Of a stretch of 32,000 nt of DNA, positions 6,001 to 30,490 are shown piece after piece. The stretch comes from a bacterium (GTDB lineage: Bacteria > CG03): positions 1 through 32,000 of the forward strand of contig JBDRRS010000007.1 in assembly GCA_043825615.1 (NCBI GenBank). Direction: 5' to 3'. The notes below the pieces were generated by a model. It was not told the DNA's origin. It searched no databases and saw nothing but the letters and a program-made list of their open reading frames with translations. Position 1 is the stretch's first letter. Each line of letters begins with the position of its first letter. Both the position numbers and the translations under genes were made by a program.

Positions 6001-6290
6001 ACGTGACCAATTATATAAACATTACCACCGTTATCTACTGTAACTCCATAACCACCATCACTGTTATTCCCAGAACCGTTAAATGTTGTGCTTGAATAAT
6101 TGAATATAGCATGTGCACGTGATATAAATATAAAAAGTAGAAAAACCAGGATGGGAAAAACTATCCTTGAGATTGCCACGCCGGCGGCTCGCAATAACAA
6201 AGAAGGGAAAATACAGCTATGCCTATCGGTAATCAGGGTTCTAATCCTTTTTCTTAATTTACCATATCCTGAAACTATTCTTTTAATCAT
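1..6290 (-). CDS. Giant secreted / cell-surface repeat protein, 5' part only (at least 2096 codons in window; the gene runs off the left edge). Domains in order: signal/anchor, 7-repeat SBBP-type beta-propeller, Fn3-like modules, second propeller-like repeat block, right-handed parallel beta-helix repeats
   Basis: Absent from the ORF track because no stop lies in the window. Hand translation of the minus strand from ATG 6290 gives MIKRIVSGYGKLRKRIRTLITDRHSCIFPSLLLRAAGVAISRIVFPILVFLLFIFISRAHA-IFNYSSTTFNGSGNNSDGGYGVTVDNGGNVYIIGHVYESATNNIWVAKYNSNLILQ... The same frame is stop-free in every stretch I checked (6290-5500, 4440-4500, 3840-3900, 3600-3720, 1980-2040, 1020-1080, 3-60). Motifs: GYGVAVDTSGNVYVTG...IWVAKYNSNL (SBBP-like blades), LKWTAPGDDG and DLTWSAPGDDG (Fn3-like), NNSCYSNSxYGI (PbH1-like beta-helix turns). 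Confidence 0.8.
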   Translation of the reverse strand, partial: MIKRIVSGYGKLRKRIRTLITDRHSCIFPSLLLRAAGVAISRIVFPILVFLLFIFISRAHAIFNYSSTTFNGSGNNSDGGYGVTVDNGGNVYIIGHVYESATNNIWVAKYNSNLILQSSTTFNGYGNNDDFGYGVAVDTSGNVYVTGNVSGGVETDIWVAKYNSNLILQSSITVGGSNSSGYGVAVDTSGNVYVTGSVYYGANKNIWVAKYNSGLILQSSTTINGSGNGNDSGNGIAVDTNGNVYVTGSVYESDFNTWLAKYNSNLILQSSKTIEGSYNDYGYGITVDNNGDVYVTGVFGEPNNPIIWVYKYNSNLIYQTGTTFDGRNAANSTDYGRGVTTDESGNVYVTGNIDNGTNSDIWLAKYNSNLVLQSSMSINGSGNGSDSGYGVAVDTSGNVYVTGSVGEATYNIWLSKHDIGVGGDTTPPADVTSFTATPGDTQATLVWTDPADADLDKILIVRNTNNSFTAPSDGTAYTDGAASGPGGDWCENVAKAAETLLVTSLSNGTKYYFKAYSFDTSTNYATGVSTNVTPAAVAASSTYTFTTGAGTDKWAYDAVDTSNPPTSGPALTGQIEITDYTNIDSANDVYHSSAIYSTNMSFLNCKFTIGEATSSISQIYVEWDGYNTAFNSTSTQIRIWDFNSSAWIFLDGYDGEAEVVLSSAIASNFGNYISGGYLYAYAVGRGAGIGDPPSVLYSDFIKVVVTYTGDATPPSAISNLTALTGDSGGTVKLKWTAPGDDGTGGGNIQGYIVKYATNVIGSGGWDFYDARVSTYMDADGWTPGTFGQEETGRVVSGLNGGTTYYFAIKAYDDASNLGTWPDISVYQSGFASINCARAQDGGGAPGSFTGNFSSAGGADYDGNSTDFAYGVAVDTISGGGPYIYMVGASSNGASGFDWVIIKYDSNGNKIASAVYDGDAHGHDRAYAVAVTPAGEVFVAGYESNATDTDIRVIKFDSSLVLVSSAVYDSTYADAAYGIAISPYGEIVVVGATNNGANNDYIIRRYNFSLGFLGSETLNGAANGDDVANAVAIDSNGNVIVTGESSNGADSDYFTVKYNAILDTLISSVTHAGPSSMDDSAQGVAVNSTDDIIVTGWIWDGADRDIFTIKYDNALSVLSSATYGNAINNDAARAVAVDGQNNVIVAGYQLNGSYNDYVTLKYSADLSTIFSSATYDSSYDDSVKGVAVGVSSAVYVTGYVSNSGTTGDTDFATMRYYLAGDSDPGPPAAVSDLAAYTGLSEGEVDLTWSAPGDDGWTDPLPAGSQFRIQYATYSTPVWMYQSAQVIKSTSGVSPTTQVSYTVTGLNAGATYYFKIWHADEVPNWSELSNGATAHAQVPQGGIWKSIQGGDWAAGAIWDKGSPPNPASVVEISHTVTFNMFNAECSSVTVYDFGTLQFDGAVSTRSLTIAGNLKIMGGVTGGKFLMPPNTGYISTLKIKCASAGQYGIIVQNGGVFDVRGNSMNFWRTTLSVQANSAQNQLTTTDSTGWKLGDVVTIGASSLSNTTEERTITLISGNVITLNSTLSVNHSAGAEVVNLLRNCVITSATSTYKAYIRNLSQTEANFNMKYVEASYLGVNSSGKYGITFDGSGTMGKINYCSIYNGGYDGIFFNSTSSNTITNNSCYSFYDGILLNNGVNNTLNNNSCYSNSQFGIHLLNTSSNTLSNNGCYSNSSYGIRVDNSSNNIFDNNSCYSNTSGIYFANTSNANVVDGNSCYLNSATGIYFYGSSSGTVINNSCYSNSEYGILVYYNSDSNTISNNSCYLNTFHGIFLFDSFNNTLSNNRCYSNSSGFRLNNGSNNIFINNSCYSNSQYGIFTRNSADNLVVDCKLGKEGNNTSGDIGYEAGFVSKLILKNCNLYSPTKVETSGIDTAGSYLISYNQDGSTGTTKIWGDYNIPSGSTGTFNYAGLLYVSAATQPNSTLKGTGSISSPQTSDGKTLTEFWEVKCTDASATSIFSVKRGTGNVLLLDTPSNAQELSEYTSSDRGVSFTVQTGDYQIGDAFYFVTVSSSNDAGVQKIIEFSSSTVGTRLNVEVGGTITMEGTPAEPTISTSSASGGYYGFASSGTMNASNYKFFNLNSEGLKLQGTAVDVVDLSSGT
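760..1500 (-). repeat. About 10 tandem 66-69 nt coding repeats (parallel beta-helix turns) inside the giant gene
   Basis: Translated units: NNSCYSNSQFGIHLLNTSSNTLS / NNGCYSNSSYGIRVDNSSNNIFD / NNSCYSNTSGIYFANTSNANVVD / GNSCYLNSATGIYFYGSSSGTVI / NNSCYSNSEYGILVYYNSDSNTIS ... The recurring 'gagtaacaac' / 'gagtagcaac' strings are visible on the plus strand. Confidence 0.8.
5050..6110 (-). repeat. Seven tandem coding repeats of about 146-163 nt (propeller blades) inside the giant gene
   Basis: The core accagttacatagacattaccactggtatctactgcaactccata recurs at about 5082, 5238, 5401, 5549, 5703, 5850 and 6005. The copies at 5082, 5703 and 5850 are identical over 45 nt. Confidence 0.85.
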
Positions 6291-6522: not shown

Positions 6523-6738
6523 TTATACTGATACCGGCGCAAGACTAAATACGCGCGCAAACTTCGTTGCTCTCCGGAGGTCGCCTTCTCGTAAAGATTC
6601 TCTCACCTCATCCAACTTTTGGGCATCTTCGAGAGAGAGATACGGCGACCAACCATCTCCCGTGTCAAGAATTTCCACATCAACTTCTGCGGCATACTCA
6701 CCTTCGCGCACCAGTTTAACATGATGTCTCTTTGTCAT
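6523..6738 (-). CDS. Small acidic partner protein of the DUF4258-like gene (putative antitoxin-like, 71 aa)
   Basis: ATGA start/stop overlap with the upstream gene (6735-6738). The sequence ...[53 protein letters not shown] resembles the small proteins I recall encoded next to DUF4258 genes. Confidence 0.5.
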
Positions 6739-7073
6739 ACCCGCCTCCTCGTGAAATTATTCGTCCACATATTCGCATCTGGTCTATATGCTGTTACGAC
6801 TACGGCAGGAGAAGACGCACCTTTAGGAATTCCCCAAACCACATGAATCGGACGTGCATCTCTGTCTTTTTCCAAGACAAGAACACACGGACCCTTATGA
6901 TATTCAGGATAATCTTCTACCACAATCCCATTATTCACACCCGTTATTATATCTTTTACGAAAATACCGTCTTCTGCTATCTCATCGTAGCCATGATCGG
7001 AGACCTTAATCTCACGCCTTGCCACTAACTCTTTGATTCTTGCAAACATTTTCACTTTCACCGGTTTAAACAT
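6735..7073 (-). CDS. DUF4258-like protein (putative toxin component, 112 aa; alternative start ATG 7049)
   Basis: [60 protein letters not shown] matches the DUF4258 pattern (xSxHAxxxMxxRgIs..ev..vi..G.iiE.Yp.d...ps.Lvlg......piHvV). Confidence 0.55.
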
Positions 7074-7431: not shown

Positions 7432-7641
7432 TCAAGATAATAATCTTTCAAACCCTGCCTCCTTTACCTCCATTCCCGTTTTCCACGTTCCCCGTTTTGC
7501 CACAAAAAAAATTTCCAATTTCATATCCTTTTCCGACATCACTCTTTCCTTCGCATAGGAGCCGAAAATATATGCCATTACTATTTCAGGTCTCGTCTGA
7601 AAATACTCTTTTAACGGCTTAATCCTATTCTTTACTATCAT
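7432..7641 (-). CDS. Short, degenerate MNT-type nucleotidyltransferase-like protein (69 aa)
   Basis: IVMAYIFGSYAKERVMSEKDMKLEIFFV keeps the GS motif of pol-beta-type nucleotidyltransferases. The expected acidic DxD strand reads KDMKLEI. No HEPN partner is present. Confidence 0.35.
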   Translation of the reverse strand: MIVKNRIKPLKEYFQTRPEIVMAYIFGSYAKERVMSEKDMKLEIFFVAKRGTWKTGMEVKEAGFERLLS

Positions 7642-7782: not shown

Positions 7783-9693
7783 TCAAAAACTGTAGTACAG
7801 GCGGAAAAGGACGCCGGAAGAATCGTAATCGTCCGAATCGTCCTTCGTTTTGTTCCCTTCAAAAGTGTAGCCGCCCGTCAGAGAAAGATTTTTCTTCACC
7901 TTGTAAGTCACTTCGGCGGAGTAATTCGTCGTGTCCGTTAAAATGTCCTCTGCGGAAAGAGGCGTCGGCAGTTTTTCCCTTGTGGTGAGCGACCCGTATA
8001 TGAAAAAACCTAAGTCGCGGGTTATGCTGATGTTTGAGCCGAGCGAAAAAGACGTTATTTCGTCCTCGGAACAGTCGTTAAGATTTTTTGTATTATTTGC
8101 GGTATATCCGAGGTCAACGGAAACCGCGGCAATTATTTTACCCGAATATGTCACCGAAAACCCGTTCGTATCCAGGTCATTGCCGGTCGCGGTGGATGCA
8201 TAATTCCGGAACTGCGAGCGCGAAAAATTTGCGGCGACCACCTGGTTTTTGAAACAATAATTAATCCCGCAGCTGAGACCCGCTGTTTCGTTGTTCAGCA
8301 CCGTCAAGGAACTTCCCTCAACTTTGTTTATGCTGGATGCCGCGCTGATTCCGGGAAGGCCCGAAGGCGTAAGCTGTATGCCGCCCTGCAAAATTGTCTG
8401 GTCCGTCGTAACCACTTCGGGGTCGTTGTCAAGATTATCTTCGGTCGCCTGGTATCCGCAATTCAATCTCAAAAATGCAACAGGATAATAATTAAGAGAG
8501 GTGTCCATGCCTGCCCTGTCGGGATAAATTCCCGGGCTTGCTAAATTCAGGAAATCGGGTTCTATTCTCTGATATTTGCCGCGCACATCAAAGGTCTTGC
8601 GGTAAACCCGCATTTCAAATCTGTAGGCCGTTCCCGGCGTTGACGCGCTGTTTTCATAAGACAGCGACGACGGGTTATAGAAATTTTCCTGACGGCCGCT
8701 GCGGGCGTACTCCCCCTGCACATTCAGGAAAGAACACGACCACTGGAGTTCGGAACTCATAACGGTGTTATCCACCGCCTGATTGGAAGGGCCGGGATTG
8801 CTGACGGAACTTTCCGAATCATACGTCGTCACGCCGGATACTTTTAGACCGAAGTCGGCGGGCAATTTTACTTTTGCGCTCATGCCTCCCGTATATCTCG
8901 CATACACGCCGTTGGTTGAGGCGTCGCCCTCCGCCGCCTCCTGCGTCCTTATGTAACACCCCGAAAAATCGGTATAATCCGTCCTGTAATTCAGATTCGT
9001 CCCGCGTCCTGTAAGAGAATAAATTGACAAAGGAGAAAAATCGGGCATGACGTCTCCTGCGGACAACTTATACCTGTCTGAAAAAACCGAAAGAAAAAGC
9101 ATATCAAGATCGAAACTGTCGTCTTCCGTTGAGTACGCATTCGAGTTGAAAATCAGAGTTTTCCCGTAAATTCTTCCTAAAAGATTCGTCGCCAGAGACC
9201 CCTGATAACCGCTCCTCTGCGTATTTTTATACGATAAAGAAACATTGCCGTTCAGAAAAACGGGCCGCACCGGTTTTTTCTCCAGCGCCGACGCCTTTAC
9301 ATTAAAATCGTAAAAATCACTCGTCAGGATGTTCTGCCCTTTTTTGTAAAGCATCACGCGATACCGGTACCTCCCCGTATAGGAAGAGGGTATTCCGTAA
9401 GTTACAAGCAGGAGCGTCGAACCGCCGGGCTGCACTTCCCCGCTTATGTTTTCCGGCGGCGTTTTCTGAATGTAATTACCCTCCGAATCAAACAGTTCAA
9501 TGCGGCAGTTTACATCTGCCGGCGGCCATTTTACCGTCTCCATATTCAGAAGAATAACCTGAAAAGTAATGTTTTCGCCCGCTTTGGCGGGGTCGGGAGC
9601 GGCGACGGAGAGCTGTATCTGCGCCGGCGACTGGGCGAAAATAATACGGGCAAGAAAAAAAACGCACAAAAAAATATAAAATCTGTTCTTCAT
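7783..9693 (-). CDS. Outer-membrane beta-barrel protein with an N-terminal Ig-like domain (636 aa); last gene of the stator operon
   Basis: Signal peptide MKNRFYIFLCVFFLARIIFA-QSP. An all-beta domain of about 110 aa follows (ITFQVILLN...RYRYRVMLYKKG). The remainder is long and rich in alternating aromatic/Gly residues and ends ...GVLFRLYYSF, the aromatic C-terminal residue typical of OMPs. There is a 2-nt gap to the upstream gene. Confidence 0.7.
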   Translation of the reverse strand: MKNRFYIFLCVFFLARIIFAQSPAQIQLSVAAPDPAKAGENITFQVILLNMETVKWPPADVNCRIELFDSEGNYIQKTPPENISGEVQPGGSTLLLVTYGIPSSYTGRYRYRVMLYKKGQNILTSDFYDFNVKASALEKKPVRPVFLNGNVSLSYKNTQRSGYQGSLATNLLGRIYGKTLIFNSNAYSTEDDSFDLDMLFLSVFSDRYKLSAGDVMPDFSPLSIYSLTGRGTNLNYRTDYTDFSGCYIRTQEAAEGDASTNGVYARYTGGMSAKVKLPADFGLKVSGVTTYDSESSVSNPGPSNQAVDNTVMSSELQWSCSFLNVQGEYARSGRQENFYNPSSLSYENSASTPGTAYRFEMRVYRKTFDVRGKYQRIEPDFLNLASPGIYPDRAGMDTSLNYYPVAFLRLNCGYQATEDNLDNDPEVVTTDQTILQGGIQLTPSGLPGISAASSINKVEGSSLTVLNNETAGLSCGINYCFKNQVVAANFSRSQFRNYASTATGNDLDTNGFSVTYSGKIIAAVSVDLGYTANNTKNLNDCSEDEITSFSLGSNISITRDLGFFIYGSLTTREKLPTPLSAEDILTDTTNYSAEVTYKVKKNLSLTGGYTFEGNKTKDDSDDYDSSGVLFRLYYSF

Positions 9694-9695
9694 CT

Positions 9696-10400
9696 TTATG
9701 CGATAAAAGCAATCCCTGCAAAAATAAAAGCGGGAAACAAAACGCTTCCGAGAATCCTGTTGAACACGGGAAAATTAAAATCATATCTCTTCAGAGCTGC
9801 GGCCGAGCAGAGAAACAAAACAAGCGGGCCCGCGAACACGTTTCCCCCGCAGTCGGCCCAGATATTCCTTCTCACGAGGATAAAGAAAAAAAGAGCGCTT
9901 CCGGAAATCAGCAGCAAAATTATTCTTGAAACATTAAAACCTGCGCCGGAAAAAACATGGACCGCATGATAAAGCGCCTCGGATTTGTAAAAAAGAAAAC
10001 TGAAAACCGCTATAAAAACGCCCGCTGTGACATAGAAATAATTCAATTTGAGATGAACTTTGAGAACGCGTAAATAGAAATTGTATAAAATTTTCTTGAT
10101 GTCGCGCTTCTCCGCCTTTTGCTCGGAGGTTTTAAGAAGCCGTTTCTTAAAATTGTCGATAACCGGAGACGTAACCTCGTAAGACATCACCTCGCGGAGT
10201 TCTTTATCCGTTGACTCATCCCCCGAAGAGATGGATTCCATCGCGCGCCGGCGCTCTTCGCCGGCTTTTTTCGTGTCATCCGCCCGGCGGGCCAGCGACG
10301 ACTGCAGAACACCCGCCTTCTTTTTTATAATACCCTGAATTTTCCCGCCGAAAATGGCAATTCCGCAAAGAACAATAACAAAAACTACTCTGAATTTCAT
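9696..10400 (-). CDS. Polytopic inner-membrane protein, no recognised family (234 aa)
   Basis: N-terminal TM (FRVVFVIVLCGIAIFGG), a charged segment of about 90 aa, then about 4 C-terminal TM helices. Stop/start junctions are 2 nt on both sides. Confidence 0.6.
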   Translation of the reverse strand: MKFRVVFVIVLCGIAIFGGKIQGIIKKKAGVLQSSLARRADDTKKAGEERRRAMESISSGDESTDKELREVMSYEVTSPVIDNFKKRLLKTSEQKAEKRDIKKILYNFYLRVLKVHLKLNYFYVTAGVFIAVFSFLFYKSEALYHAVHVFSGAGFNVSRIILLLISGSALFFFILVRRNIWADCGGNVFAGPLVLFLCSAAALKRYDFNFPVFNRILGSVLFPAFIFAGIAFIA

Positions 10401-10402
10401 AA

Positions 10403-10711
10403 TTACATCAAACCCGCCGTCCTGCCCACGTCATGGATAAAAGCCAAACCGTTGCCGGGTTTATCAAGTTTCCCGACGGCAACAATCCTGTCGAAGACCT
10501 CATCAACACGCTCGCCGGGAACAACCGTCATAAAGACCTCTTTTTCCGGATTTATGAAAGCCCTCCTGAAAAAACCGAGTTTCTGCCTGACCCCCGTTCC
10601 CCGCGCGTAGAAAATCGTCGCGCCCGAAACATTCATTTTCAAAATTTCCTTCACAATTTTATTGGCTTTTCCCCTGTCCACAACGCACGTAATCAATTTC
10701 AGATTCTCCAT
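10403..10711 (-). CDS. P-II-like (GlnB-fold) small signalling protein, copy 2 (102 aa)
   Basis: It aligns by eye to GlnB topology: b1 KLITCVV, a1, b2 GATIFYARGTG, a short T-loop-like VRQKLGFFRRAFINPEK, b3 EVFMTVV, a2, b4 GLAFIHDV. It is a paralogue of the adjacent gene. Confidence 0.6.
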   Translation of the reverse strand: MENLKLITCVVDRGKANKIVKEILKMNVSGATIFYARGTGVRQKLGFFRRAFINPEKEVFMTVVPGERVDEVFDRIVAVGKLDKPGNGLAFIHDVGRTAGLM

Positions 10712-10770
10712 TCATCCTCCGTCATATTTACTCTTTTATACTGCACTGTGAAAATGACCGTTGCCTTTTA

Positions 10771-11085
10771 TTAATCCCTCTTGTAAAACCCGAACGCCTT
10801 CTCCACGTCCTGAACAAAAACAAAACCCCTCGCCGTTTCCTTCAGATTGGCAAGTTCAATAATTCTGCCGAACATATCATCCGTTTTTTCCTCCGGCACA
10901 ACCGTCATAAAGACATCTTTTTCCGGCTCTATCAACCTTCCCTTAAGCCCGATTTTCTCCCTCACTCCCGTTCCGACGCCGCGGAAACTCGTCACGCCAG
11001 AAATGCCCATTTTCAAAATTTCCTTTATTATACCGTCCGCTTTTCCCTGCTCTACAATGCACGTTATCAACTTATACTTTTCCAT
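10771..11085 (-). CDS. P-II-like (GlnB-fold) small signalling protein, copy 1 (104 aa)
   Basis: MEKYKLITCIVEQGKADGIIKEILKMGISGVTSFRGVGTGVREKIGLKGRLIEPEKDVFMTVVPEEKTDDMFGRIIELANLKETARGFVFVQDVEKAF follows the same b-a-b-b-a-b pattern as GlnB (MKKIEAII...GMTVTEVKGFGRQKG...KIEIVV...GKIFVFDV). Confidence 0.6.
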   Translation of the reverse strand: MEKYKLITCIVEQGKADGIIKEILKMGISGVTSFRGVGTGVREKIGLKGRLIEPEKDVFMTVVPEEKTDDMFGRIIELANLKETARGFVFVQDVEKAFGFYKRD

Positions 11086-11098
11086 ATCTTCCTCCTTA

Positions 11099-11140
11099 TC
11101 AGGGCGGCGGGAGGCTTGCCCCGTTGGGGGTGGCGTCCAT
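11099..11140 (-). promoter_or_regulatory. Intercistronic micro-ORF MDATPNGASLPPP* (13 codons) between the TPR gene and P-II copy 1
   Basis: Its ATG (11140-11138) shares one base with the TPR TAA stop (TAATG). It ends CCG CCG CCC TGA, followed by TAAGGAGGAAGAT and then ATG 11085. It is homologous to the element at 14202-14228. Confidence 0.35.
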
Positions 11141-12012
11141 TACCGCAGACCTCCCTTCTTTCTTTTCCTTTCCTGCTTCTCCAGCGATTTAAGGAACTTT
11201 TTTATGTCCTTATTATCAGGATTTATCTTCAGCGCATCTTCCCAGTTTTTTTTCGCCGCGGAAAAATTTTTAAGCGCGTAATAAGCCGAGCCCCTTCTCA
11301 TCAGGGCAAGCTCCTTGTTTTCGTCCAGCGCCAGAGCTCTGTCGCAGGCAATAATCGCCCCCGTATAATCCGCCTTATAAATGGAATCCAGCGAACTCTG
11401 GAGCAGCTGATGCAGCAAATCCATTCCTTCTATGAGTTTTATCTTGGACCTTTCTTCGGGATAAACGCTTTCAAAATAAGAAAGAATGCCGGTTATCTGT
11501 TCCCGCCGGCGGTCGTCCTTATTTATCTGTCCCGCGTATATCAGCGCGTCAAAAATCAAACCCGGTTTTTTCTCCAGATACGCCACGATGCCTTTTCTCA
11601 CATACTGCAAGACCTTATCCTGACCGGAAGAGTCCTTTACCAGCGAAGAAATTTTTTCAAGTTTTTCTTTTTTTTCAGCGACGCCGGGATAAGTCGGGTC
11701 AATGTCCATTATGCGTTTAGCCGTATCGGAAGCCGCAAACCACCTGCCTGCCATTATCTGTTCTTCAAACGCCCTGACTTTCGGATTGAGTTCGTCCTCT
11801 ATCTTCTGTCTGATGAACTTTATCATCTTTAACGGCGGTGTCTGCTCCGGGTCAATTTCAAGAATTCTCTGCCAGCAGCGTATTGCATCGCTGTATTTCC
11901 CCGCCGTGTAATATTTTACGGCGGAATTATACAGACCTTTTATGTCTTCTCCGGCAAAAGCAATAATGGGGACGGTTCCTAATATGCACAATCCCACCAA
12001 TTTCTTAAACAT
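11140..12012 (-). CDS. Periplasmic TPR-repeat protein (about 290 aa)
   Basis: Signal peptide MFKKLVGLCILGTVPIIAFA-GE. TPR-like helices follow (YNSAVKYYTAGKYSDAIRCWQRILEIDPEQ; MRRGSAYYALKNFSAAKKNWEDALKINPDN). The track start at 12015 is TTG, and ATG at 12012 is more likely. Confidence 0.8.
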   Translation of the reverse strand: MFKKLVGLCILGTVPIIAFAGEDIKGLYNSAVKYYTAGKYSDAIRCWQRILEIDPEQTPPLKMIKFIRQKIEDELNPKVRAFEEQIMAGRWFAASDTAKRIMDIDPTYPGVAEKKEKLEKISSLVKDSSGQDKVLQYVRKGIVAYLEKKPGLIFDALIYAGQINKDDRRREQITGILSYFESVYPEERSKIKLIEGMDLLHQLLQSSLDSIYKADYTGAIIACDRALALDENKELALMRRGSAYYALKNFSAAKKNWEDALKINPDNKDIKKFLKSLEKQERKRKKGGLR

Positions 12013-12064
12013 CAATCGCCAAACTCCATTAAAATCATCTCCTCGGATAATTAGGAACCGTCCC
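11969..12064 (-). promoter_or_regulatory. Perfect 15-bp long-range stem (GGGACGGUUCCUAAU / AUUAGGAACCGUCCC) closing a 66-nt loop that contains the TPR gene SD and start codon
   Basis: Plus-strand 12050-12064 attaggaaccgtccc is the exact reverse complement of 11969-11983 gggacggttcctaat. The 5' arm begins with the last base of the upstream TAG stop (12066-12064). The 3' arm lies in TPR codons about 10-15. Confidence 0.5.
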
Positions 12065-12726
12065 TAATTCTTACTAATTCTTAAAATGCTTATTTCAATG
12101 CGGCGGTTCTGAGCCCGTCCTGATGCGGCGGCGTTATCCGCAACGGGATAATATTCGCCGAAACCGTAAGCGGAAAATCTTCCCGGATGTATTTTTTCAA
12201 CATCAATAAAATATTTTATAACGCTGAATGCCCGGAGGGTTGAAAGTTCGAAATTGCCGCCGGGCAGCTGCCTGAACGAAATATTATCGGTGTGCCCCGC
12301 AACATTTATTTTATTATCCGTTCCTTTTAAGACCTCTGCGACTTTATGCAAAGTCAGATGACTGCTTTTTTTAAGGTCGGAAGAACCCGAATCAAAAAGA
12401 ACGGGGCTCTCCATCATTATTCTTATTTTCCGCGCATCCATTTTGATGACGCCTTCGCCGTCCCTGAATATCTCCGATATTTTTTCAGCCATTTCAACAT
12501 CCTTCATAGAACTTTTTTCCCGCGAAACACCCGCCTGGAGACGCGCGATAACACCTTCGTATCTGACCCCCGACTTCAATGAAATGACATAAAGTATCAG
12601 AAAAAAAATCATACAGAGAAGCATCATCGTGCCGTAAGGCGTTTTCCACGAAGAGGGATCAAAACCCTTCCCGTATTTTACCGCCCTGTCGGTATGCCTT
12701 CTCCCTGAGCCTGCAATCACGCTCAT
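12064..12726 (-). CDS. MotB-like OmpA-domain protein lacking the conserved channel aspartate (220 aa)
   Basis: N-terminal TM WKTPYGTMMLLCMIFFLILY aligns with the neighbour's WLTVFCDMTTNLMLFFLLLY, with Thr at the Asp position. The C-terminal OmpA/MotB fold is present: VLFDSGSSDL...VAGHTDNISF...NFELSTLRAFSVIKYF...GFGEYYPVADNAAASGRAQNRRIEI. ATGA overlap with the upstream gene. Confidence 0.8.
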   Translation of the reverse strand: MSVIAGSGRRHTDRAVKYGKGFDPSSWKTPYGTMMLLCMIFFLILYVISLKSGVRYEGVIARLQAGVSREKSSMKDVEMAEKISEIFRDGEGVIKMDARKIRIMMESPVLFDSGSSDLKKSSHLTLHKVAEVLKGTDNKINVAGHTDNISFRQLPGGNFELSTLRAFSVIKYFIDVEKIHPGRFSAYGFGEYYPVADNAAASGRAQNRRIEISILRISKN

Positions 12727-13391
12727 TCAATATCCTGCTTGAGCAGCACAATTTCAATTCGCCGGTTTTTCTGGCGCGACGTCGGGGTCTCGTTGGAAAA
12801 CCTTGGAAAATACTCTCCGTATCCGGCGGCGACAAACCTTTCCGGCGGGAAACCCCTGCCGATAAAATAATCGATAACGTTTACCGCCCGGCGGGCGGAA
12901 AGTTCCCAGTTCGAACGGAAAAGAGCGCTCTTAATCGGCACATTATCCGTGTGTCCTTCGACAATCACTTTATCGTCCGTCATAGATAAAGTTCTCGCTA
13001 TTTCATTCAGTAATTTCTTCGTTTCATCTTTTACCAGCGCGCCGCCGGAATCAAAAAGCACCGGCGTGTTCAGGACAAGCCGTATCTGGCTTTCATTAAC
13101 CTCCAGGGTGGAGTATTTTTTAAGATTGCCTTTCTGAAGCAGTTCTTCCAAATTGCTCTGCGTTTCATCCTCCGCAAACTTTTTCAGAACATTATCCGCC
13201 TTATGTCTTAAGACCACATCCTTCTTCCCGGCGCTGCTCAGCGCGGAATGCATCTGGCGCTGCTGCGATTGGGAAAGGCGCGTAAAACCGTACAGCAGGA
13301 GAAAAAAAAGCATAAGATTCGTCGTCATATCGCAGAACACGGTAAGCCAGATGGGTTCTCTTTGAACTTTCCTGAACGCCTTAAAAATCAT
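12723..13391 (-). CDS. motB: MotB-type stator subunit with conserved TM aspartate and OmpA-like peptidoglycan-binding domain (222 aa)
   Basis: The TM WLTVFCDMTTNLMLFFLLLY carries the Asp (compare the canonical MotB motif ..yADlmTlLl.FF). C-terminal VLFDSGGALV...VEGHTDNVPI...NWELSARRAVNVIDYF...GYGEYFPRFSNETPTSRQKNRRIEI. Confidence 0.85.
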   Translation of the reverse strand: MIFKAFRKVQREPIWLTVFCDMTTNLMLFFLLLYGFTRLSQSQQRQMHSALSSAGKKDVVLRHKADNVLKKFAEDETQSNLEELLQKGNLKKYSTLEVNESQIRLVLNTPVLFDSGGALVKDETKKLLNEIARTLSMTDDKVIVEGHTDNVPIKSALFRSNWELSARRAVNVIDYFIGRGFPPERFVAAGYGEYFPRFSNETPTSRQKNRRIEIVLLKQDIE

Positions 13392-13418
13392 TTACAAATA
13401 TTCTGCGCGGCCCGTCTT

Positions 13419-14186
13419 TCATTTCTTCCGCTTCTCCCTGATGCGTTTTGAGAGAAACGCCTCAAGACGGTGCAAGGTTATGGACGGGACTTCCTGATTG
13501 AGTATTGATTCTATTCCTTCGGCTATCAGTTCCTTGGCAAGAATCTCATCGTTCGAGTACTCTCCGAGTTTCAGCGAAGCGGGTAAAAAAAGAAAATTCG
13601 CGCCGAAAATACCGTAAAATGTCGTCGTAACGGCAATAGCCATGGAAGCACCCATACTCGCCGGGTCCTGCAGATTTTTCAGAACCTGAATAACCCCTAT
13701 AAGCGTGCCCAGTAAACCGAATATGGGAGAAAAAGTAGCCATTGCCTGCAAGACCCCCGATGTCCTTTCATGCCTCTGGGCGACGGAAAAAATTTCCTGC
13801 CTCATGTTTTCAAGAATTATTTCCTTTTCCACGCCGTCGGATATTTTTTTAACGTTGGCGGAGAGGAATCTGTTCTTTGCCTGAACCGGCGAATCAGACA
13901 GAACCATAAAACCGTTTCTCTTAGCCGCGGCGGACAGAACCGCAATGTCTTTTACGAGTTTGTTTATATCCGTCGGAGGAGGAGGAAAAAGTATGAGTTT
14001 AACCGCAGACGGAACCTGCTTTATGCTGCGGAAAGGAAATGCAATTAACGTCGAACCGAGAGTCCCTCCGAACACAAGAATAGCGGCATCCAAATTAAAA
14101 AGGAGATAAACGACATCCCCGTGAAGCATGACCAAATAAACGGCGCCGGTTCCGAGAGCAAAACCAAGAACAGTCATCAGGTCCAT
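13419..14186 (-). CDS. motA: MotA/PomA-type stator channel protein (255 aa, 4 TM)
   Basis: Flagellar-type architecture: two N-terminal TMs, a large cytoplasmic loop, then TM3/TM4 ATFSPIFGLLGTLIGVIQ and MAIAVTTTFYGIFGANFLFLPASLKL carrying both conserved prolines. MotA-type C-terminal tail AEGIESILNQEVPSITLHRLEAFL. Confidence 0.9.
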   Translation of the reverse strand: MDLMTVLGFALGTGAVYLVMLHGDVVYLLFNLDAAILVFGGTLGSTLIAFPFRSIKQVPSAVKLILFPPPPTDINKLVKDIAVLSAAAKRNGFMVLSDSPVQAKNRFLSANVKKISDGVEKEIILENMRQEIFSVAQRHERTSGVLQAMATFSPIFGLLGTLIGVIQVLKNLQDPASMGASMAIAVTTTFYGIFGANFLFLPASLKLGEYSNDEILAKELIAEGIESILNQEVPSITLHRLEAFLSKRIREKRKK

Positions 14187-14201
14187 ATTTTTCCTTCCTT
14201 A

Positions 14202-14228
14202 TCAGGGCGGCGGGAGGGTGGCGTCCAT
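14202..14228 (-). promoter_or_regulatory. Intercistronic micro-ORF MDATLPPP* (8 codons) between the FliG-like gene and motA
   Basis: Its ATG 14228 lies 1 nt after the upstream TAA stop (14232-14230). It ends CCG CCG CCC TGA, followed by TAAGGAAGGAAAAAT and then ATG 14186. It shares ATGGACGCCACC...CTCCCGCCGCCCTGATAAGGA with 11099-11140. Confidence 0.35.
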
Positions 14229-14229
14229 A

Positions 14230-15630
14230 TTAACCCCGCTTTCCCCGCGGCGGGGCGTCTTCGTCCGCCTGCGGCGTGGCGAGCAAACCGTCTTTTCTCA
14301 ATTTGTCCGCAACGCGGGCGAGCGCTTTTTTATCTTCTCTTAACCTCGCGGGCCCGGGAGATGCGCCAAGTTCTATTTCTTCCTTCAGACGCGTCGCAAT
14401 GCCCTCCGGAAGTTTCTCCAGAATGCCGTTTCTTACGCTTTCTTCCAGCGTCCGGAGCACGTTCGCAAACGCCACCGGCGTGAAACTCCGGCTCAGCAGA
14501 AGAATATCCCCGGAAGTCATATCCGCAAGAGACCCCGCGCGAAAAACAGCCGACCTCAACTCATCCGCAAAAAGCGAGTCGCTCTGCGCTATGAAATCGA
14601 GATAAGAATCCATTTCTTCGTCGCCCAAACCCTCCAGAATTTCTTTAACGACTTCTTTCCCGCCGACCATAAAATCCATCTTCTGCCTGAGATGCTCTTC
14701 CCATTTAAGAACCTCGTCCGGGGGCAGAGTTCTCGTCTGCGCAAGTTTTGACAATGCCTCGCGGGCCTGCGCAGGCTCCAAACCCGACAGGACTTTATTC
14801 GCCACCTGCGGAGCGTAATTGATCAAAACGGCAATGTTTTCGGGCTTTTCCTTCTTAAGAAGAAAAAGAAGTTTATCCGTATTTTCCTCGTTTACAAAAG
14901 AAAAATGCTTTTTGACGCCCTCTCTTTCTCCGCCGGCAGCGCCCATCCCTGCAGCCGGAGCGGCTGCGCTCACAGAGGAACTAAAAGCCGCCGCTGTTTC
15001 GCTTTTTTTCAAAGAACTTTCAAGCGTTTCGGATATAATCCCCGCCGCGCGGGGAAACACGCGCATTCCGAAAACAAAAAGAACCGCTATCAGAATAACG
15101 GCAAGACCTGAAAACAGCAGACCCCATAAATGCGGCGGATATATGATATCCGACCACTTGAAGGGATTTTCTCTGAAATTCATTTTCTTGATGATGAGCG
15201 CATCGCCGCGGGCGGCCTCAAGCCCGAGGACGCTCGTCGAGACCTCTCTTATTATATTAACCATGCTTTCGGGAAGGCCGTTGTCCACGATAATCTGCGC
15301 AGTGAGTTTCTTTATGTTTTTCGCCGTGTCTCCGAGGTCAAGACTCGCCAGCCCGAGGCCGAGTTTCTCCTGCAGGGGAACCCCCGGCAGGACGACCGCC
15401 TCCTCATCCTCATCTTCCGAACTGCTGCTTATCAACTGAACGTTTATAACGATTAACAGCTTGTCCGTCCCTGTTATTTCGGTCAATATCCGTCTTAACC
15501 TTTCCTCAAGATTCTTTTCTATGGCGATTTTTGTTTCTATGTCGGAACCTTGTTTTGCAAAGGCATTGCCCGGCAGCGCAGGAAGGAAAAAACAGAAGAG
15601 CGAGAAAAGAATAATGGGGACGGTTCCCAT
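14230..15630 (-). CDS. Bitopic membrane protein (466 aa): signal/TM, periplasmic domain of about 140 aa resembling a FliF/YscJ ring-building motif, TM, Ala/Ser linker, cytoplasmic FliG-like middle and C-terminal domains
   Basis: aa 1-25 MGTVPIILFSLFCFFLPALPGNAFA; aa 168-192 LWGLLFSGLAVILIAVLFVFGMRVF. aa 243-450 align by eye with FliG. LLKKEKPENIAVLINYAPQVANKVLSGLEP matches fLqnEHPQtiAliLsyLdpekAaevLseLpe. MVGGKEVVKEIL matches the Gly-Gly linker ..GGvkavaeIL. ILEKLPEGIATRLKEEIELGASPGPARLREDKKALARVADKLRKDGLL matches fLsNMSkRAaemLrEDLealGPVRlsdVeeAQqkIvei.RrLeeeGei. The periplasmic part (LEERLRRILTEITGTDKLLIVINVQL...LTAQIIVDNGLPESMVNIIREVSTSVLGLEAARGDALIIKKM) resembles FliF/YscJ RBM strings. Confidence 0.65.
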   Translation of the reverse strand: MGTVPIILFSLFCFFLPALPGNAFAKQGSDIETKIAIEKNLEERLRRILTEITGTDKLLIVINVQLISSSSEDEDEEAVVLPGVPLQEKLGLGLASLDLGDTAKNIKKLTAQIIVDNGLPESMVNIIREVSTSVLGLEAARGDALIIKKMNFRENPFKWSDIIYPPHLWGLLFSGLAVILIAVLFVFGMRVFPRAAGIISETLESSLKKSETAAAFSSSVSAAAPAAGMGAAGGEREGVKKHFSFVNEENTDKLLFLLKKEKPENIAVLINYAPQVANKVLSGLEPAQAREALSKLAQTRTLPPDEVLKWEEHLRQKMDFMVGGKEVVKEILEGLGDEEMDSYLDFIAQSDSLFADELRSAVFRAGSLADMTSGDILLLSRSFTPVAFANVLRTLEESVRNGILEKLPEGIATRLKEEIELGASPGPARLREDKKALARVADKLRKDGLLATPQADEDAPPRGKRG

Positions 15631-15635
15631 TACTT

Positions 15636-16097
15636 TTAAAACTCCTCCGCAACAACACCCGCTATCATCCTGACCGTTTCAATGTCCTGCTGGGAAAGGA
15701 CTTCCTTCGACGTGAGTTTTTTCGCGTTAATAACGCCGATTGCCCTGCCGTTTTTTATCACCGGCACGCTTAAGCCGGAAGTTATATTCTCATACTTTGC
15801 CAAATGCGCAAAACTTCTGTGCTGGGAAACTTCGCCGACGATAAGAAACGGTTTTTTTTCTGAAACGGCGCGGCCGGCGACCCTCTCGCCGACTTTGATT
15901 TTTATCCCGAGTTTCTTGTTCGCGCTCTCGGCGTCGGGTTCTGCTGCCGCCACAATTTCTATCTCATCCGACGTTTCATCCCTGAGCATAAAAGAGCATC
16001 CGTCGGCTTTTATGAAACCGGCAAGAATCTTCAGTGCGACAACAACCACTTTCCTTTTTTCCGCTCCGAGCTTTTCATCCGACACAAAAACAGGCAT
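15636..16097 (-). CDS. Stand-alone GAF-domain protein (about 153 aa); first gene of the operon
   Basis: ILAGFIKADGCSFMLRDETSDEIEIVAAAEPD...GERVAGRAVSEKKPFLIVGEVSQHRSFAHL...ITSGLSVPVIKNGRAIGVINAKK is a typical GAF pattern. The track start at 16136 is TTG. ATG 16097 (MPVFVSDEK) has GAAGGGGG upstream. Confidence 0.75.
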   Translation of the reverse strand: MPVFVSDEKLGAEKRKVVVVALKILAGFIKADGCSFMLRDETSDEIEIVAAAEPDAESANKKLGIKIKVGERVAGRAVSEKKPFLIVGEVSQHRSFAHLAKYENITSGLSVPVIKNGRAIGVINAKKLTSKEVLSQQDIETVRMIAGVVAEEF

Positions 16098-16173
16098 AAC
16101 ACCCCCTTCCCCCCGGCGATTCCGCCGGAGGAACAAGTAAGAATAATCACTTTACTCTTTCCCCGTGAAAGGC

Positions 16174-16202
16174 ATTATATAAATTATAATATGGGAAATC
16201 AA
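16174..16202 (-). promoter_or_regulatory. Sigma70-like promoter of the GAF-FliG-like-motAB operon (TTGATT-17-TATAAT)
   Basis: On the minus strand, -35 is at 16202-16197 and -10 at 16179-16174. It sits in the divergent region shared with nadE. Confidence 0.5.
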
Positions 16203-17049: not shown

Positions 17050-18000
17050 TTATTTAGACGGACTTTCTCCGGGAACAAACGGCGTCGTTACCCTGTCTAT
17101 ATCCATGGGTATCAATGCTATCTCAATCCTTCTGTTTTTCGTTCTCCCCTCTACCGTGTCATTTGTATCAATGGGTTTGGTGTCGGCATATCCTGCCACC
17201 GAAATAAATATTGAGTCAATACCCACTTTGTCTATCAGATATCTGGCTATGTTCGTCGCTCTCGCTGTTGAAAGCTCCCAGTTTGTGGGGTATTTGCCCC
17301 TTAGTTTGGGTCCAATCGGCACATTATCCGTATGTCCTTCAATACGGATTTGTTTGTCTTTGATATTCTTTAAAATATTCCCGACCCTGTTGAGGACCTG
17401 TTTGCCTTCTTTCCGGACTTCAGCCTCTCCCAGCGGAAACATCAGTTTATCCACGATGTTAACCGACAACTTGTCTTTAAGCTGAGTAATTTTTATCTGT
17501 CCGTCCTGCACTTCCTTTTCCATATCCTGGACAAGATTCTCGTATGTTGACTTCAATCTGCCGACTTCGTCTTCTTTTGCTTTTGATACCGCGTCTATAC
17601 TGTCCTGCAGTTCGATATTCATGGCATTCGCAGCGGACAGCTGTTTCTTTAAATCCAATACGGTTTTTTCTTTTTCCCGTTTACTAACGGTAAGGTCCGC
17701 TATCAATTTGTCTTTTTCGCTTTTTTTGGCCTCCAGCACGGATATGAGATTACTGCTGTCTTTCTGCAAAATTGAATACTGCTCTTTGATTTCCGCCGCC
17801 TCAAGTTCGAGTTTCTGTTTCTCGTTAGAGACCGTCTGCAGGCTTTCTTCCGCCTGCTTCAACTTTGTTATAAGTTCGTCATTCCCGTTACGAAGAACTT
17901 CCGTTTCCTCTACTTTCATCCGGTACTTCCCGGTCGTAACGCATCCGACCAAAAAAACGCAAAATAAACCCATGGCTAAATTCTTAACGCTTCTTTTCAT
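17050..18000 (-). CDS. OmpA-family lipoprotein with a long coiled-coil (about 316 aa)
   Basis: Lipobox LVGC in MKRSVKNLAMGLFCVFLVGCVTTG. A heptad-like, Lys/Glu-rich region of about 170 aa follows. C-terminal IEGHTDNVPIG...NWELSTARATNIARYL...GYADTKPIDTNDTVEGRTKNRRIEI. ATG 18000 has AAGGAGAG upstream, whereas the track start at 18018 is TTG. Confidence 0.85.
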   Translation of the reverse strand: MKRSVKNLAMGLFCVFLVGCVTTGKYRMKVEETEVLRNGNDELITKLKQAEESLQTVSNEKQKLELEAAEIKEQYSILQKDSSNLISVLEAKKSEKDKLIADLTVSKREKEKTVLDLKKQLSAANAMNIELQDSIDAVSKAKEDEVGRLKSTYENLVQDMEKEVQDGQIKITQLKDKLSVNIVDKLMFPLGEAEVRKEGKQVLNRVGNILKNIKDKQIRIEGHTDNVPIGPKLRGKYPTNWELSTARATNIARYLIDKVGIDSIFISVAGYADTKPIDTNDTVEGRTKNRRIEIALIPMDIDRVTTPFVPGESPSK

Positions 18001-18286
18001 CTTCTCTCCTTTTAGCAAATTCCAATTGCCCTAAACCTATAAACACCCCTGCACTTTAAAACCGGTTCCATGTGTTTTAGCGGGTAATTGTACTAAATTT
18101 ATGACACATCCAACAAATATTTATTGCTGACATTATCAAATGCCATATACATGTCACCATCGGATAAGATATCATTAACATCAACAGCAATCTCGGTGTC
18201 CATACTACCGTCTGTGCTGACAAAACGGGCGCGTTGACAGTGTTGTTCTTTACTTTATACGATTTTTTGAGATAATATAAAGCGAT

Positions 18287-24645: not shown

Positions 24646-25884
24646 TTATGAAAGTTCAATCCTATCACGCATACCGTGCACAAGATTGGTCATAACCGTA
24701 AGGTAGTCCCTCAGATGGCGCGTTATCAAAAATTGCCCCCTGACAAACTCTCTCGCTTTTTCTCCCATATTCTTTAACTTGTCTTCCCGCTGCAGAAGAT
24801 AGCGCATTCTCAACGCCGCGCCTTCAGGCGTGCTTACAAGAAATCCCGTATGGTGATTGATAACCTGGCATCTGATTCCGCCGGTATCGCCGCCTATCAC
24901 GGGTTTGGACTTCCACATCGCTTCGGTTACGGTTAAACCGAATCCTTCACGCAGGGATTTCTGCAGGATAATATCGGCTCCTCTCTGAAGCGCATTGATC
25001 GTTGTATGCGCGTCCGGCGGCAGAACGAGAACATGCACATCAGGGTCGCTGTTTGCGGCAAGTTTCACTTCGTCAAGAACCCGCGCGCCTTCAGGGTCGT
25101 CGTCCGCAAACCCTCCCGCAAGAATGAGCTGCAGAGGGATAAATTTCTTTGCCATCCGGTAAGCGTGTATCACGCCCACAGGGTCCTTGAATTCATCAAA
25201 CCTGGAAACCTGCAGAACGACGGGACGGGATTTATCTATTTTGAATTTTTTAAAAACAGCGTCAATTTCTTTTTGCGGTAAATCCTTGTTTTTATCGCTT
25301 AACGGGTCTATGCTCGGCGGAATAAGATATTGCGTATGCGGCAGGGTCTGAGCAAAATCCGCTATTGAAAAAACACTGGCATCATACCCTGCTACGTACT
25401 GCTTCAGGTATTTCCAAACTTTCCTTTGGGGATTGCTTACGTCTATATGACATCTCCATATCCATTTTGCTTTTATACCGGGACACAGGGTTTTCATCAT
25501 TGCCGGCTGAGGGTCATGCGCGAATATAATGTCTGCGTCCTTCAGTTTAGGTTTGAGTATTTCCGCGTTTTTCGCGCTGGTATCCTCATACGCTTTCAGC
25601 ATGGCTTCGGTTATTTCCATACTTTTGCCCTGTAAAGCGTTATGGAACCTCTTGGTGCATTCAAAAAAATCCGGATTACCGTTCAAAACTTCCCATGAGA
25701 CCTCAATTCCAAGTTCTTGTTTAAGCGGCACGAGTTTATTTAATATTTCGGCGACGCCGCCGCCGCTTTTTGTGGAATTTATATGCACCACCTTTATTTT
25801 CTGCATGCCTTTCGCAAGCTGCCTGAGATGATTTATTACGTCTTTCCCCGCAGAATCGCCGTATTGTTCAAGTAATGATTTCAT
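24646..25884 (-). CDS. TreT-like GT4 glycosyltransferase (trehalose glycosyl-transferring synthase-like, 412 aa)
   Basis: VVHINSTKSGGGVAEILNKLVPLKQELGIEVSWEVLNGNPDFFECTKRFHNALQG closely resembles the N-terminal signature I remember for archaeal/bacterial TreT. The C-terminal part reads SLREGFGLTVTEAMWKSKPVIGGDTGGI. The actual acceptor is not determinable. Confidence 0.7.
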   Translation of the reverse strand: MKSLLEQYGDSAGKDVINHLRQLAKGMQKIKVVHINSTKSGGGVAEILNKLVPLKQELGIEVSWEVLNGNPDFFECTKRFHNALQGKSMEITEAMLKAYEDTSAKNAEILKPKLKDADIIFAHDPQPAMMKTLCPGIKAKWIWRCHIDVSNPQRKVWKYLKQYVAGYDASVFSIADFAQTLPHTQYLIPPSIDPLSDKNKDLPQKEIDAVFKKFKIDKSRPVVLQVSRFDEFKDPVGVIHAYRMAKKFIPLQLILAGGFADDDPEGARVLDEVKLAANSDPDVHVLVLPPDAHTTINALQRGADIILQKSLREGFGLTVTEAMWKSKPVIGGDTGGIRCQVINHHTGFLVSTPEGAALRMRYLLQREDKLKNMGEKAREFVRGQFLITRHLRDYLTVMTNLVHGMRDRIELS

Positions 25885-25885
25885 T

Positions 25886-28111: not shown

Positions 28112-28148
28112 ACATATAATTGTATGTTATCATACATTACCTTGCATC

Positions 28149-28953: not shown

Positions 28954-28955
28954 GA

Positions 28956-30489: not shown

Positions 30490-30490
30490 T

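Follow-up and report, generated by a model that had tools for sequence, protein, structure and literature searches.

To our knowledge, FliG-type rotors turned by MotAB have so far been found only inside flagella, and the other recruited 5:2 motors of which we know (Tol, Ton, Agl, GldLM, Zorya and SiiAB) all use different partners. In the Agl–Glt machinery of Myxococcus, AglR acts with AglQ and AglS, the tetratricopeptide repeat (TPR) proteins GltC, GltD and GltE, the outer-membrane barrels GltA, GltB, GltH and GltK, and the adhesin CglB. In the SiiAB–SiiE system of Salmonella pathogenicity island 4 (SPI-4), a Mot/Exb-like proton channel pair is thought to control the secretion or retention of a giant adhesin, and in Vibrio and the Campylobacterota the MotX/MotY T-ring and the TPR-containing PflA/PflB, respectively, serve as stator scaffolds. 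The locus described here is a ten-gene operon of the Elusimicrobiota on a bacterial contig (JBDRRS010000007.1, assembly GCA_043825615.1), in which a flagellar-type rotor–stator pair is found in a non-flagellar, envelope-spanning setting, so far the subject of no more than a passing remark in the literature. It lies on the minus strand, from 16136 to 7783, of a 32,000-nucleotide stretch (the first 32 kb of the contig, referred to as the window), and its genes are called g1 to g10 in the order in which they are read. The observations concern domain homologies, residue patterns, a conserved gene order and linkage to genes for giant surface proteins. We give about an even chance to the reading that the operon encodes an envelope-spanning rotor–stator machine, powered by ions, which works on giant surface proteins and descends from or is related to the flagellar motor's core.

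The rotor candidate is the 466-residue product of g2 (14230-15630, minus strand), which is a natural fusion of a FliF S-ring-type ring-building domain, one transmembrane helix, and the middle and C-terminal domains of FliG. The FliG part is recognised by Pfam (FliG_M 33.1 bits, cutoff 25; FliG_C 31.0 bits, cutoff 23.3), as it is in 27 of 27 members of the g2 family, and residues 241-445 align with the middle and C-terminal domains of Thermotoga maritima FliG (PDB 1lkv, E=3e-12). There is also a weak alignment between residues 118-184 and the FliF part (433-504) of an engineered FliF–FliG fusion. In an AlphaFold2 monomer model made from a 27-sequence input (pLDDT 71.7, pTM 0.38), the predicted order is a signal or anchor segment, a periplasmic domain (about 28-150), a transmembrane helix (166-191), a disordered linker and a helical FliG_MC region (about 241-446), the last being well modelled. 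The periplasmic unit is modelled as α(28-53), β(58-66), a disordered stretch (69-101), β(106-116), α(121-135) and β(144-150), which corresponds to the αββαβ ring-building motif. When the model was compared with the PDB by Foldseek, FliG came first (E=6e-8) and FliF second, by way of its RBM3/collar/S-ring region (E≈4e-4 to 3e-3, target TM-score 0.55-0.60; RBM, ring-building motif), with PrgK and EscJ weaker. The Pfam profile YscJ_FliF_C is matched at E≤0.01 by 25 of the 27 family members, reaching 26-36 bits (cutoff 23.8) in P0218, P0299, P0024 and P0005 and being covered in its entirety in two distant members; the g2 of the window is not among these sequence matches, and its likeness to FliF is seen by fold. 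The searches for FliG_M, FliG_C and YscJ_FliF_C, together with the fold comparison, thus agree with the preliminary description of this DNA, in which the 466-residue protein had been called FliF/FliG-like from inspection of the sequence.

The distribution of invariant residues places much of the constraint on g2 outside the cytoplasm. The insertion at 69-101 sits between β1 and β2, which is where FliF and SpoIIIAG carry their β-collar, and it holds a near-invariant LPG[V/I]P motif (of 158 sequences, 156 have the proline and 155 the glycine); immediately preceding the final strand lies an RGD motif that is no less fixed. The periplasmic domain accounts for 17 of the 22 invariant positions of g2. 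A similar bias is found in the outer-membrane barrel protein encoded by g10, where 24 of 110 positions (22%) are invariant in the N-terminal domain versus 44 of 491 (9%) in the barrel. Because invariance is concentrated in the periplasmic domains of both proteins, the strongest constraint in the system acts on periplasmic surfaces.

Several parts of FliF and FliG are missing from the fusion. In FliG, a soluble protein of about 330 residues, the FliG_N domain binds the C-terminal peptide of FliF. In the Pfam search g2 has no separate FliG_N domain, the sole match (24.3 bits) being below cutoff and overlapping the M domain, and there is neither a match to, nor room for, RBM1 and RBM2 of FliF (Pfam YscJ_FliF), which surround the export gate, in a periplasmic part of about 140 residues. 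At the aligned positions, the FliM-binding motif EHPQR reads EKPEN and the switch-hinge motif MFXF reads AVFR in the g2 of the window, and across the family E261 is kept in 89 and P263 in 85 of 158 sequences. Judged from these alignments both motifs are decayed, which fits the absence of FliM and FliN. Because it is membrane-anchored, is devoid of FliG_N and has a decayed FliM-binding motif, g2 is not an ordinary fliG, and the same features contradict the view, allowed for at the outset, that it is simply the fliG copy of a conventional flagellar regulon.

An ordinary or simplified flagellum, in which the fusion acts as MS- and C-ring, g3 and g4 are the normal stator, and the other flagellar genes lie elsewhere in the genome, is one alternative, given that each of MotA, MotB, FliG_MC and the C-terminal domain of FliF belongs to the flagellar type, that engineered FliF–FliG fusions are known to assemble rings, and that a few Elusimicrobiota genomes encode complete flagella. 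The losses just listed (RBM1, RBM2, FliG_N, EHPQR and MFXF) argue against it, as do the surroundings of the operon. We gathered related loci by word-indexed and pattern searches and by exact-match contig retrieval, which gave 24 distinct loci after deduplication, the window included, and fetched flanks of up to ±10 kb. No flagellar structural genes were found in these flanks, the only flagellar gene being a small FlbD gene in one locus (L026), and the operon is accompanied instead by genes for a TPR protein, a barrel of the outer membrane and giant surface proteins. Within the 32-kb window, Pfam and the window annotation found no flagellar gene outside the operon, and the domain scans agree with the original statement that FliM/N, an export gate, rod, hook and flagellin are not encoded there. 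A 2022 preprint on magnetotactic Elusimicrobiota reports that most free-living members of the phylum carry motAB, flbD and fliG homologues but are devoid of structural flagellar genes, and calls the role of these homologues unclear. In a 2024 study, flagellar machinery was absent from the Elusimicrobiota genomes analysed, and all isolates were non-motile. A 2025 survey of stator evolution makes no mention of Elusimicrobia or of this system, and a literature search for a natural FliF–FliG fusion, or for a non-flagellar FliG/MotAB machine, returned only engineered fusions and the passing remark in the preprint, and no account of the operon or of its partners was found. From the window, the flanks of the 24 loci and this literature, we regard a flagellum as a highly improbable explanation of the operon.

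The fusion gene is followed by genes for a stator. The A subunit is encoded by g3 (13419-14186, minus strand), a MotA with four transmembrane helices and a Pfam MotA_ExbB score of 84.1 bits. Because the whole of g3 can be aligned with MotA/PomA structures that have been solved (E=1e-43, PDB 9lu9, to 2e-30), and because the NCBIfam models for MotP/MotA/PomA score 145-164 bits versus 19 bits for ExbB/TolQ (all below the equivalog cutoffs), it belongs on sequence criteria with the flagellar-type stators as these are defined in PMC12505986. Both transmembrane prolines, in TM3 and TM4, are invariant across 21 orthologous sets, and the NCBIfam scores and residue alignment together uphold the initial assignment of g3 as a four-helix MotA of flagellar type that has both prolines.

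Two B subunits are encoded downstream. MotB is the product of g4 (12723-13391, minus strand), with MotB_plug and OmpA domains in Pfam and scores of 125-145 bits for MotD/MotS/MotB, and its paralogue, MotB′, is the product of g5 (12064-12726, minus strand), which has the same two Pfam domains. As had been noted from the sequence, the channel aspartate is present in the former and absent from the latter: alignment shows that it is invariant in 21 MotB sequences, whereas in MotB′, compared over the window and L001-L022, the position is held by Thr in the clade of the window and, elsewhere, by Asn (six loci), Ser (one) or Asp (three). Both proteins have kept the plug and peptidoglycan-binding motifs. 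This variation, set against an invariant MotB, suggests that one member of the B-subunit pair has lost its ion coupling repeatedly or by degrees. The start of g5 overlaps the stop of g4 by 4 nucleotides, an arrangement suggestive of synthesis of the two proteins in equal amounts, and possibly of a heterodimer.

The residues through which rotor and stator would meet show a matched pattern. In the 21 orthologous sets, the MotA position equivalent to R90 is always Lys or Arg and that equivalent to E98 is never acidic; in g2, the D289 equivalent is Glu in 132 of 158 sequences, the D288 equivalent is Glu or Gln, and the R281 equivalent is Gly in 127 of 158. We take these equivalences, which follow E. 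coli numbering and the alignments, to be moderately secure, and with the same moderate security one charge pair seems to have been kept on both partners and the other lost on both. Such matched keeping and loss is the pattern expected if MotA and g2 still touch as they do in flagella.

The MotB likeness also raises the question of a Zorya-type anti-phage defence, in which a MotAB-like complex would serve as a membrane sensor. In PADLOC, g4 and g5 give ZorB matches of up to 75 bits, and toxin–antitoxin genes lie nearby; these matches, however, reflect generic MotB likeness and are weaker than the 145-bit match to flagellar MotB. MotA has no match to ZorA, a protein with a long cytoplasmic tail, there are no equivalents of the effectors ZorC, ZorD or ZorE, PADLOC returned nothing for the other eight proteins, and the locus is syntenic and vertically conserved across the phylum, not patchy. 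With only this generic MotB/ZorB similarity from PADLOC, Zorya or any other defence system was rejected, and we rate it as scarcely credible.

The rotor–stator pair is accompanied by proteins of the outer envelope. A secreted TPR protein is encoded by g6 (11140-12015, minus strand; TPR_2 61.8 bits, N-terminal hydrophobic signal), and a TPR gene is present in 17 of the 19 loci that were included in the clustering of flanking open reading frames (ORFs). The last gene, g10 (7783-9693, minus strand), encodes a 636-residue outer-membrane protein for which Pfam gives no match. Its AlphaFold2 model (pLDDT 81) consists of a signal peptide, an Ig-like β-sandwich (24-133) and a barrel of about 26 strands (146-635) ending in ...YYSF, and so favours the barrel with an Ig-like domain that had been proposed from the sequence. 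The best Foldseek match is MtrB (6r2q_B, E=2e-12, TM-score 0.51), followed by ushers, TonB-dependent receptors and LptD. MtrB is the barrel that sheathes MtrA. On the model, g10 is best described as a large generic barrel and not as a member of the MtrB, usher, TonB-dependent receptor or LptD families.

It is here that the main rival must be weighed, namely a non-rotary force transducer of the Tol/Ton/SiiAB type, in which ion flow would pull or reshape g2 and the TPR–barrel complex without the turning of a complete ring, the outcome being outer-membrane integrity, gated transport through the barrel, or the retention and release of a giant adhesin. That 5:2 motors have been recruited repeatedly for work at the outer membrane is documented in review, and the last gene of the operon encodes a large barrel that by fold is closest to the sheath-type MtrB, then ushers, TonB-dependent receptors and LptD; a MotB′ devoid of the channel Asp suggests a non-classical stator, and giant-protein genes lie alongside as in SiiAB–SiiE. 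However, the partner of MotA is a FliG torque domain joined to a ring-building motif and not an elongated extension of the B subunit as in TonB, TolA or GldM, and MotA itself is flagellar-type and not ExbB/TolQ-type. In addition, the g10 model has neither a plug domain nor a TonB box, and Tol–Pal has been reported separately in Elusimicrobia. We consider a transducer of this kind unlikely, though deserving of far more weight than a flagellar locus, a relic or Zorya, all of which are poorly supported.

Conservation of the operon was followed across the 24 loci. The order fusion–MotA–MotB–MotB′–TPR is found wherever the contig allows, down to about 29% identity in g2, in 22 of the 24 loci, with two variants that differ; the core order first seen in the window is therefore kept in distant relatives. 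The barrel gene lies directly upstream, downstream or on the opposite strand of the core in at least 14 loci by one count (12 of the 19 clustered loci, plus L027 and L028) and next to the core in at least 15 by another, and g10 is a core component despite its variable side. Apart from the giant genes and the core set of six, all-against-all clustering of flanking ORFs brought up no conserved partner, the other recurrent 'families' being antisense shadow ORFs. All of the named sources are Elusimicrobia or Elusimicrobiota, save for one metagenome-assembled genome labelled Omnitrophota. A first word-indexed search had pointed to a tiny family of 28 proteins, a picture overturned by an exhaustive profile search of 1.84 billion representatives, in which 415 clusters were recovered at E≤1e-30, the best 150 all being full-length.

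These data bear on the suggestion that the operon is a functionless, decaying relic of a lost flagellum. Most of the phylum is devoid of flagella and a few members keep them, which makes loss plausible, and the FliM-binding and switching motifs of g2 have decayed. On the other hand, all ten ORFs of the operon are intact, the gene order is kept across distant lineages (g2 identity down to 23-35%), the family comprises hundreds of clusters, the LPGVP and RGD motifs, the MotB Asp and the MotA prolines are invariant, and non-flagellar partners (the TPR protein and the barrel) have been gained. A relic is thus very hard to reconcile with the pattern of conservation, and we give it little more credence than the defence system.

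Some loci depart from the common arrangement. In L026 (1-18827), the order is a gene of 8833 codons, a TPR gene, a fusion with extra C-terminal TPRs, a 1091-residue protein without assignment, FlbD, MotA, a single MotB, and Wzy_C/TPR. In L025 (1-16145), a distant fusion protein with C-terminal TPRs lies beside two PorV-family genes and genes for Por_Secre_tail/CHU_C proteins, and a Roadblock/LC7 (MglB-like) gene is also present; this neighbourhood hints at a tie to surface-protein handling of the kind associated with the type IX secretion system (T9SS). Single-domain CheY-like response regulators adjoin the operon in L005 (17485-17871) and L027 (9502-9894), with no FliM/FliN receiver present.

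The genes for giant surface proteins are the remaining recurrent neighbours. In the window, a gene on the minus strand (3-6290), outside the operon, encodes a protein of more than 2096 residues with SBBP beta-propeller repeats, fn3 domains and a right-handed beta-helix, so that the giant gene reported downstream of the operon is indeed present. The left end of the window (1-3) coincides with the end of the public contig, and the NCBI protein identical to this ORF is annotated as partial, with 2096 residues. Elsewhere, ORFs of at least 900 residues occur in the fetched flanks of 16 of the 24 loci, many of them exceeding 1400 residues and still being cut by the end of the locus. Several of these proteins are 40-57% identical to parts of the giant of the window, though g2 in the same loci is only 32-35% identical, and L015 and L018 have kept the N-terminal start with '…SIFNYSSTT…'. 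Among the large secreted proteins in the neighbourhood, the C-terminus is complete in two only, and both carry a T9SS-type sorting domain: the neighbour in L001 matches TIGR04183 with 27.8 bits (cutoff 23), and the C-terminus of the giant in L016 matches the C-terminal domain (CTD) of PorU with E=1e-14. When relatives of the giant protein were searched for, the matches formed a mosaic of proteins with repeat domains, drawn from many phyla. The link between operon and giant genes, which had been called speculation, now appears strong on the basis of linkage conserved in 16 of 24 loci, distant ones included, but it is not proven, four roomy loci (L003, L007, L011 and L027) being devoid of a giant gene.

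Between the barrel gene and the giant gene lie three small genes on the minus strand (6523-7073 and 7432-7641). Two form a toxin–antitoxin-like pair of a DUF4258 gene and a 71-residue partner, the third is a short Polbeta nucleotidyltransferase ORF, and a perfect TTGACA-17-TATAAT site (7710-7682) precedes them. At the same spot, relatives have different small ORFs or a response regulator.

If the even-chance reading of an envelope-spanning rotor–stator machine is correct, its working can be sketched as follows. The g2 protein would oligomerise through its FliF-type domain into an inner-membrane ring with a periplasmic collar, the fused FliG_MC forming a cytoplasmic torque ring. MotA5 complexes would be anchored to peptidoglycan by MotB, MotB′ or both, with protons (or Na+) passing by way of the MotB Asp, and the stator would push on the torque helix of FliG_C through the kept pair, the R90-equivalent Lys or Arg of MotA and the D289-equivalent Glu of g2. 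Movement would then be passed outwards by the surfaces that are conserved best in the system, on the periplasmic collar of g2, the secreted TPR protein and the barrel's Ig-like domain, and the output at the outer membrane would be the export, anchoring or movement of the giant surface proteins encoded alongside. In the clade of the window, the GAF and P-II proteins may add metabolic or second-messenger control. Ring formation, rotation, periplasmic coupling, output and drive by the proton-motive force are all steps that we infer. A more specific form of the same idea is an independent rotary engine, in which a FliF(RBM3)–FliG(MC) ring is turned by MotA/MotB/MotB′ and torque is delivered by way of the TPR protein and the 26-strand barrel to the giant proteins, with no type III export apparatus, rod or filament. 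This version we hold to be possible, with the balance tilted somewhat against it; if true, it would represent a new kind of gliding, adhesin-handling or secretion machine, and in evolution it would be either what is left of a flagellum put to new use or a relative of the pre-flagellar motor that has survived.

A number of points weigh against a rotor–stator machine acting on giant proteins. The g2 ring and the contact between g2 and MotA are themselves predictions, and the monomer model of g2 is of moderate quality by the scores given above, with the collar insertion disordered. We know of no precedent for a ring that has neither an internal export gate nor a rod, and of no obvious carrier of torque across the periplasm. 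MotB′ mostly has no channel Asp, and the stator may therefore work unlike its flagellar counterpart, and the L025 variant has no MotAB genes within 10 kb. With respect to the output, the giant protein of the window is cut by the contig end before its C-terminus, there are the four roomy loci with no giant gene, and giant genes may be common throughout the phylum. Finally, the 2022 preprint notes a few Elusimicrobiota genomes with complete flagella.

The organisation of the operon itself is compact, with looser coupling than the preliminary description had it. All ten co-directional ORFs are present over the expected span and in the order originally given, on which the ORF list, Pfam and NCBIfam agree. 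The junctions had been described as overlapping, 1-6 nucleotides long or bridged by micro-ORFs; from g1 to g10 the gaps are 5, 43, 27, -4, 48, 54, 59, 2 and 2 nucleotides, and the lengths had thus been understated. Likewise, the sigma70-like promoter proposed upstream of g1 corresponds to a real site, TTGATT-17-TATAAT (16174-16202, minus strand; 10 of 12 positions matching), which lies 5' of g1 and is divergent from nadE, but such sites are not enriched in the window (8 found, with 11±3 expected in shuffled sequence), and for this reason it is a candidate only. Counts of internal terminators and promoters are no different from those in shuffled sequence, so that operon status rests on spacing and synteny. 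No riboswitch or leader RNA was found by Rfam in the window, the sole Rfam matches being a transfer-messenger RNA (tmRNA) and a tRNA.

Four genes of the operon are accessories of the closer clade only and not part of the core. A stand-alone GAF protein is encoded by g1 (15636-16136, minus strand; Pfam GAF_2 46.9 bits), a GAF gene being found in 6 of the 19 clustered loci. Its start is probably the ATG at 16097, giving 153 residues, because the orthologues in L005 and L006 have 153 residues and a Shine-Dalgarno-like stretch, GGAAGGGGG, lies ahead of this codon. Two P-II-like proteins, g7 (10771-11085, minus strand; Pfam P-II 40.1 bits) and g8 (10403-10711, minus strand; 35.6 bits), both exceed the Pfam cutoff of 25, as expected from their earlier identification, and neither is matched by an NCBIfam equivalog. 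The product of g9 (9696-10400, minus strand) is a membrane protein that has five hydrophobic segments, is matched by no Pfam family, and was seen in 4-5 loci. The original proposal of a stator, minimal rotor and envelope module with GAF and P-II inputs is consequently supported in its homologies and conserved core, but the GAF, P-II and polytopic proteins are restricted to one clade.

The remaining genes of the window encode nadE, an OmpA lipoprotein, proteins of sugar metabolism, a MatE exporter, and TreT with DUF5752; genes of the toxin–antitoxin, Fic and macro kinds are also present, as are the tmRNA and a tRNA. The OmpA-family protein (17050-18018, minus strand), upstream of the operon beyond nadE, has 322 residues, a long coiled coil and a lipobox-like LVGC; it may be a further peptidoglycan anchor, and is not conserved beside the operon elsewhere. 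The pair of TreT_GT1 trehalose synthase and DUF5752 genes near the operon (24646-26560, minus strand) is likewise present at the distant locus L028 (4823-6713). The tmRNA gene (28956-29302, minus strand; Rfam 173.8 bits) encodes, according to ARAGORN, the tag ANSTLATATC, the ending of which is unusual compared with the common ...LAA tags. Around the tmRNA and a tRNA-Arg, genes for a DUF6036 nucleotidyltransferase, a macro domain, Fic/DOC and a ParE toxin (27512-31000, minus strand) may mark an integration hotspot.

If a torque core is indeed joined to an outer-membrane barrel in one operon, the rotor–stator pair would be a separable module, which bears on how the flagellum was assembled, or is dismantled, in evolution. 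The operon would provide a minimal system for the generation of torque without a switch complex or export gate, and, in a phylum that is widespread and uncultured, would encode a machine for surface proteins or motility that has yet to be described; it might also explain the enigmatic motAB and fliG genes noted in magnetotactic Elusimicrobiota. The pairing of MotB with a MotB′ such that only one Asp is present is a test, provided by nature, of the two-site alternating model for 5:2 motors, and questions of motor modularity and origin are made directly testable by the operon.

Compared with the flagellar core, the operon shares the FliF RBM3/collar-type domain, FliG_M and FliG_C, the transmembrane prolines and the basic R90-equivalent of MotA, in most sequences an acidic D289-equivalent on the torque helix of FliG, and the channel Asp, plug and OmpA-like peptidoglycan anchor of MotB. 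It differs in that FliF and FliG form one polypeptide with no RBM1, RBM2 or FliG_N and with decayed EHPQR and MFXF motifs, in that the R281/E98 pair is lost on both partners and a second MotB has no Asp, and in that no genes for FliM/N, an export gate, a rod, a hook or a filament are linked to it, its fixed partners being instead a TPR protein and a barrel of the outer membrane. The scaffolds of the Vibrio and Campylobacterota stators resemble it in having, encoded with the stator or acting on it, a periplasmic protein of the TPR/Sel1 type and one more OmpA-like protein; those scaffolds, however, decorate a complete basal body, and MotB′ keeps the transmembrane segment and plug of MotB, unlike MotY.

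By analogy, the parts list as a whole resembles Agl–Glt or GldLM/SprB. With Agl–Glt it would share one A and two different B subunits, a periplasmic TPR protein, outer-membrane β-barrels and a surface adhesin as output, as well as the general plan of a trans-envelope machine energised from the inner membrane. The stator here is of the MotA/MotB type whereas that of Agl–Glt is of the TolQ/R type, the cytoplasmic partner is a FliG domain and not AglZ/MglA/MreB, and no Glt homologues were found in the operon by Pfam or NCBIfam. With SiiAB–SiiE the shared feature is a channel pair encoded beside the gene for a giant adhesin, but SiiAB works with a type I secretion system, and neither a FliG/FliF-like partner nor a TPR protein nor a large barrel dedicated to it goes with it. 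In the case of the T9SS and gliding machinery (GldL5M2, the GldKN ring, SprA, PorV and SprB), the likeness would lie in an ion-driven 5:2 motor tied to giant adhesins, in the C-terminal sorting domains of two neighbouring large proteins, and in the PorV-family and CTD genes near L025. Pfam and NCBIfam gave no matches to GldK, GldL, GldM, GldN, SprA or PorV in the operon, PorV-family genes being found only beside L025, and the phylum Elusimicrobiota lies outside the Fibrobacterota–Chlorobiota–Bacteroidota (FCB) group. In contrast to gliding machinery of that kind, the motor here is MotAB with a FliG-type rotor, and the barrel has about 26 strands, the size of MtrB or LptD, and not 36.

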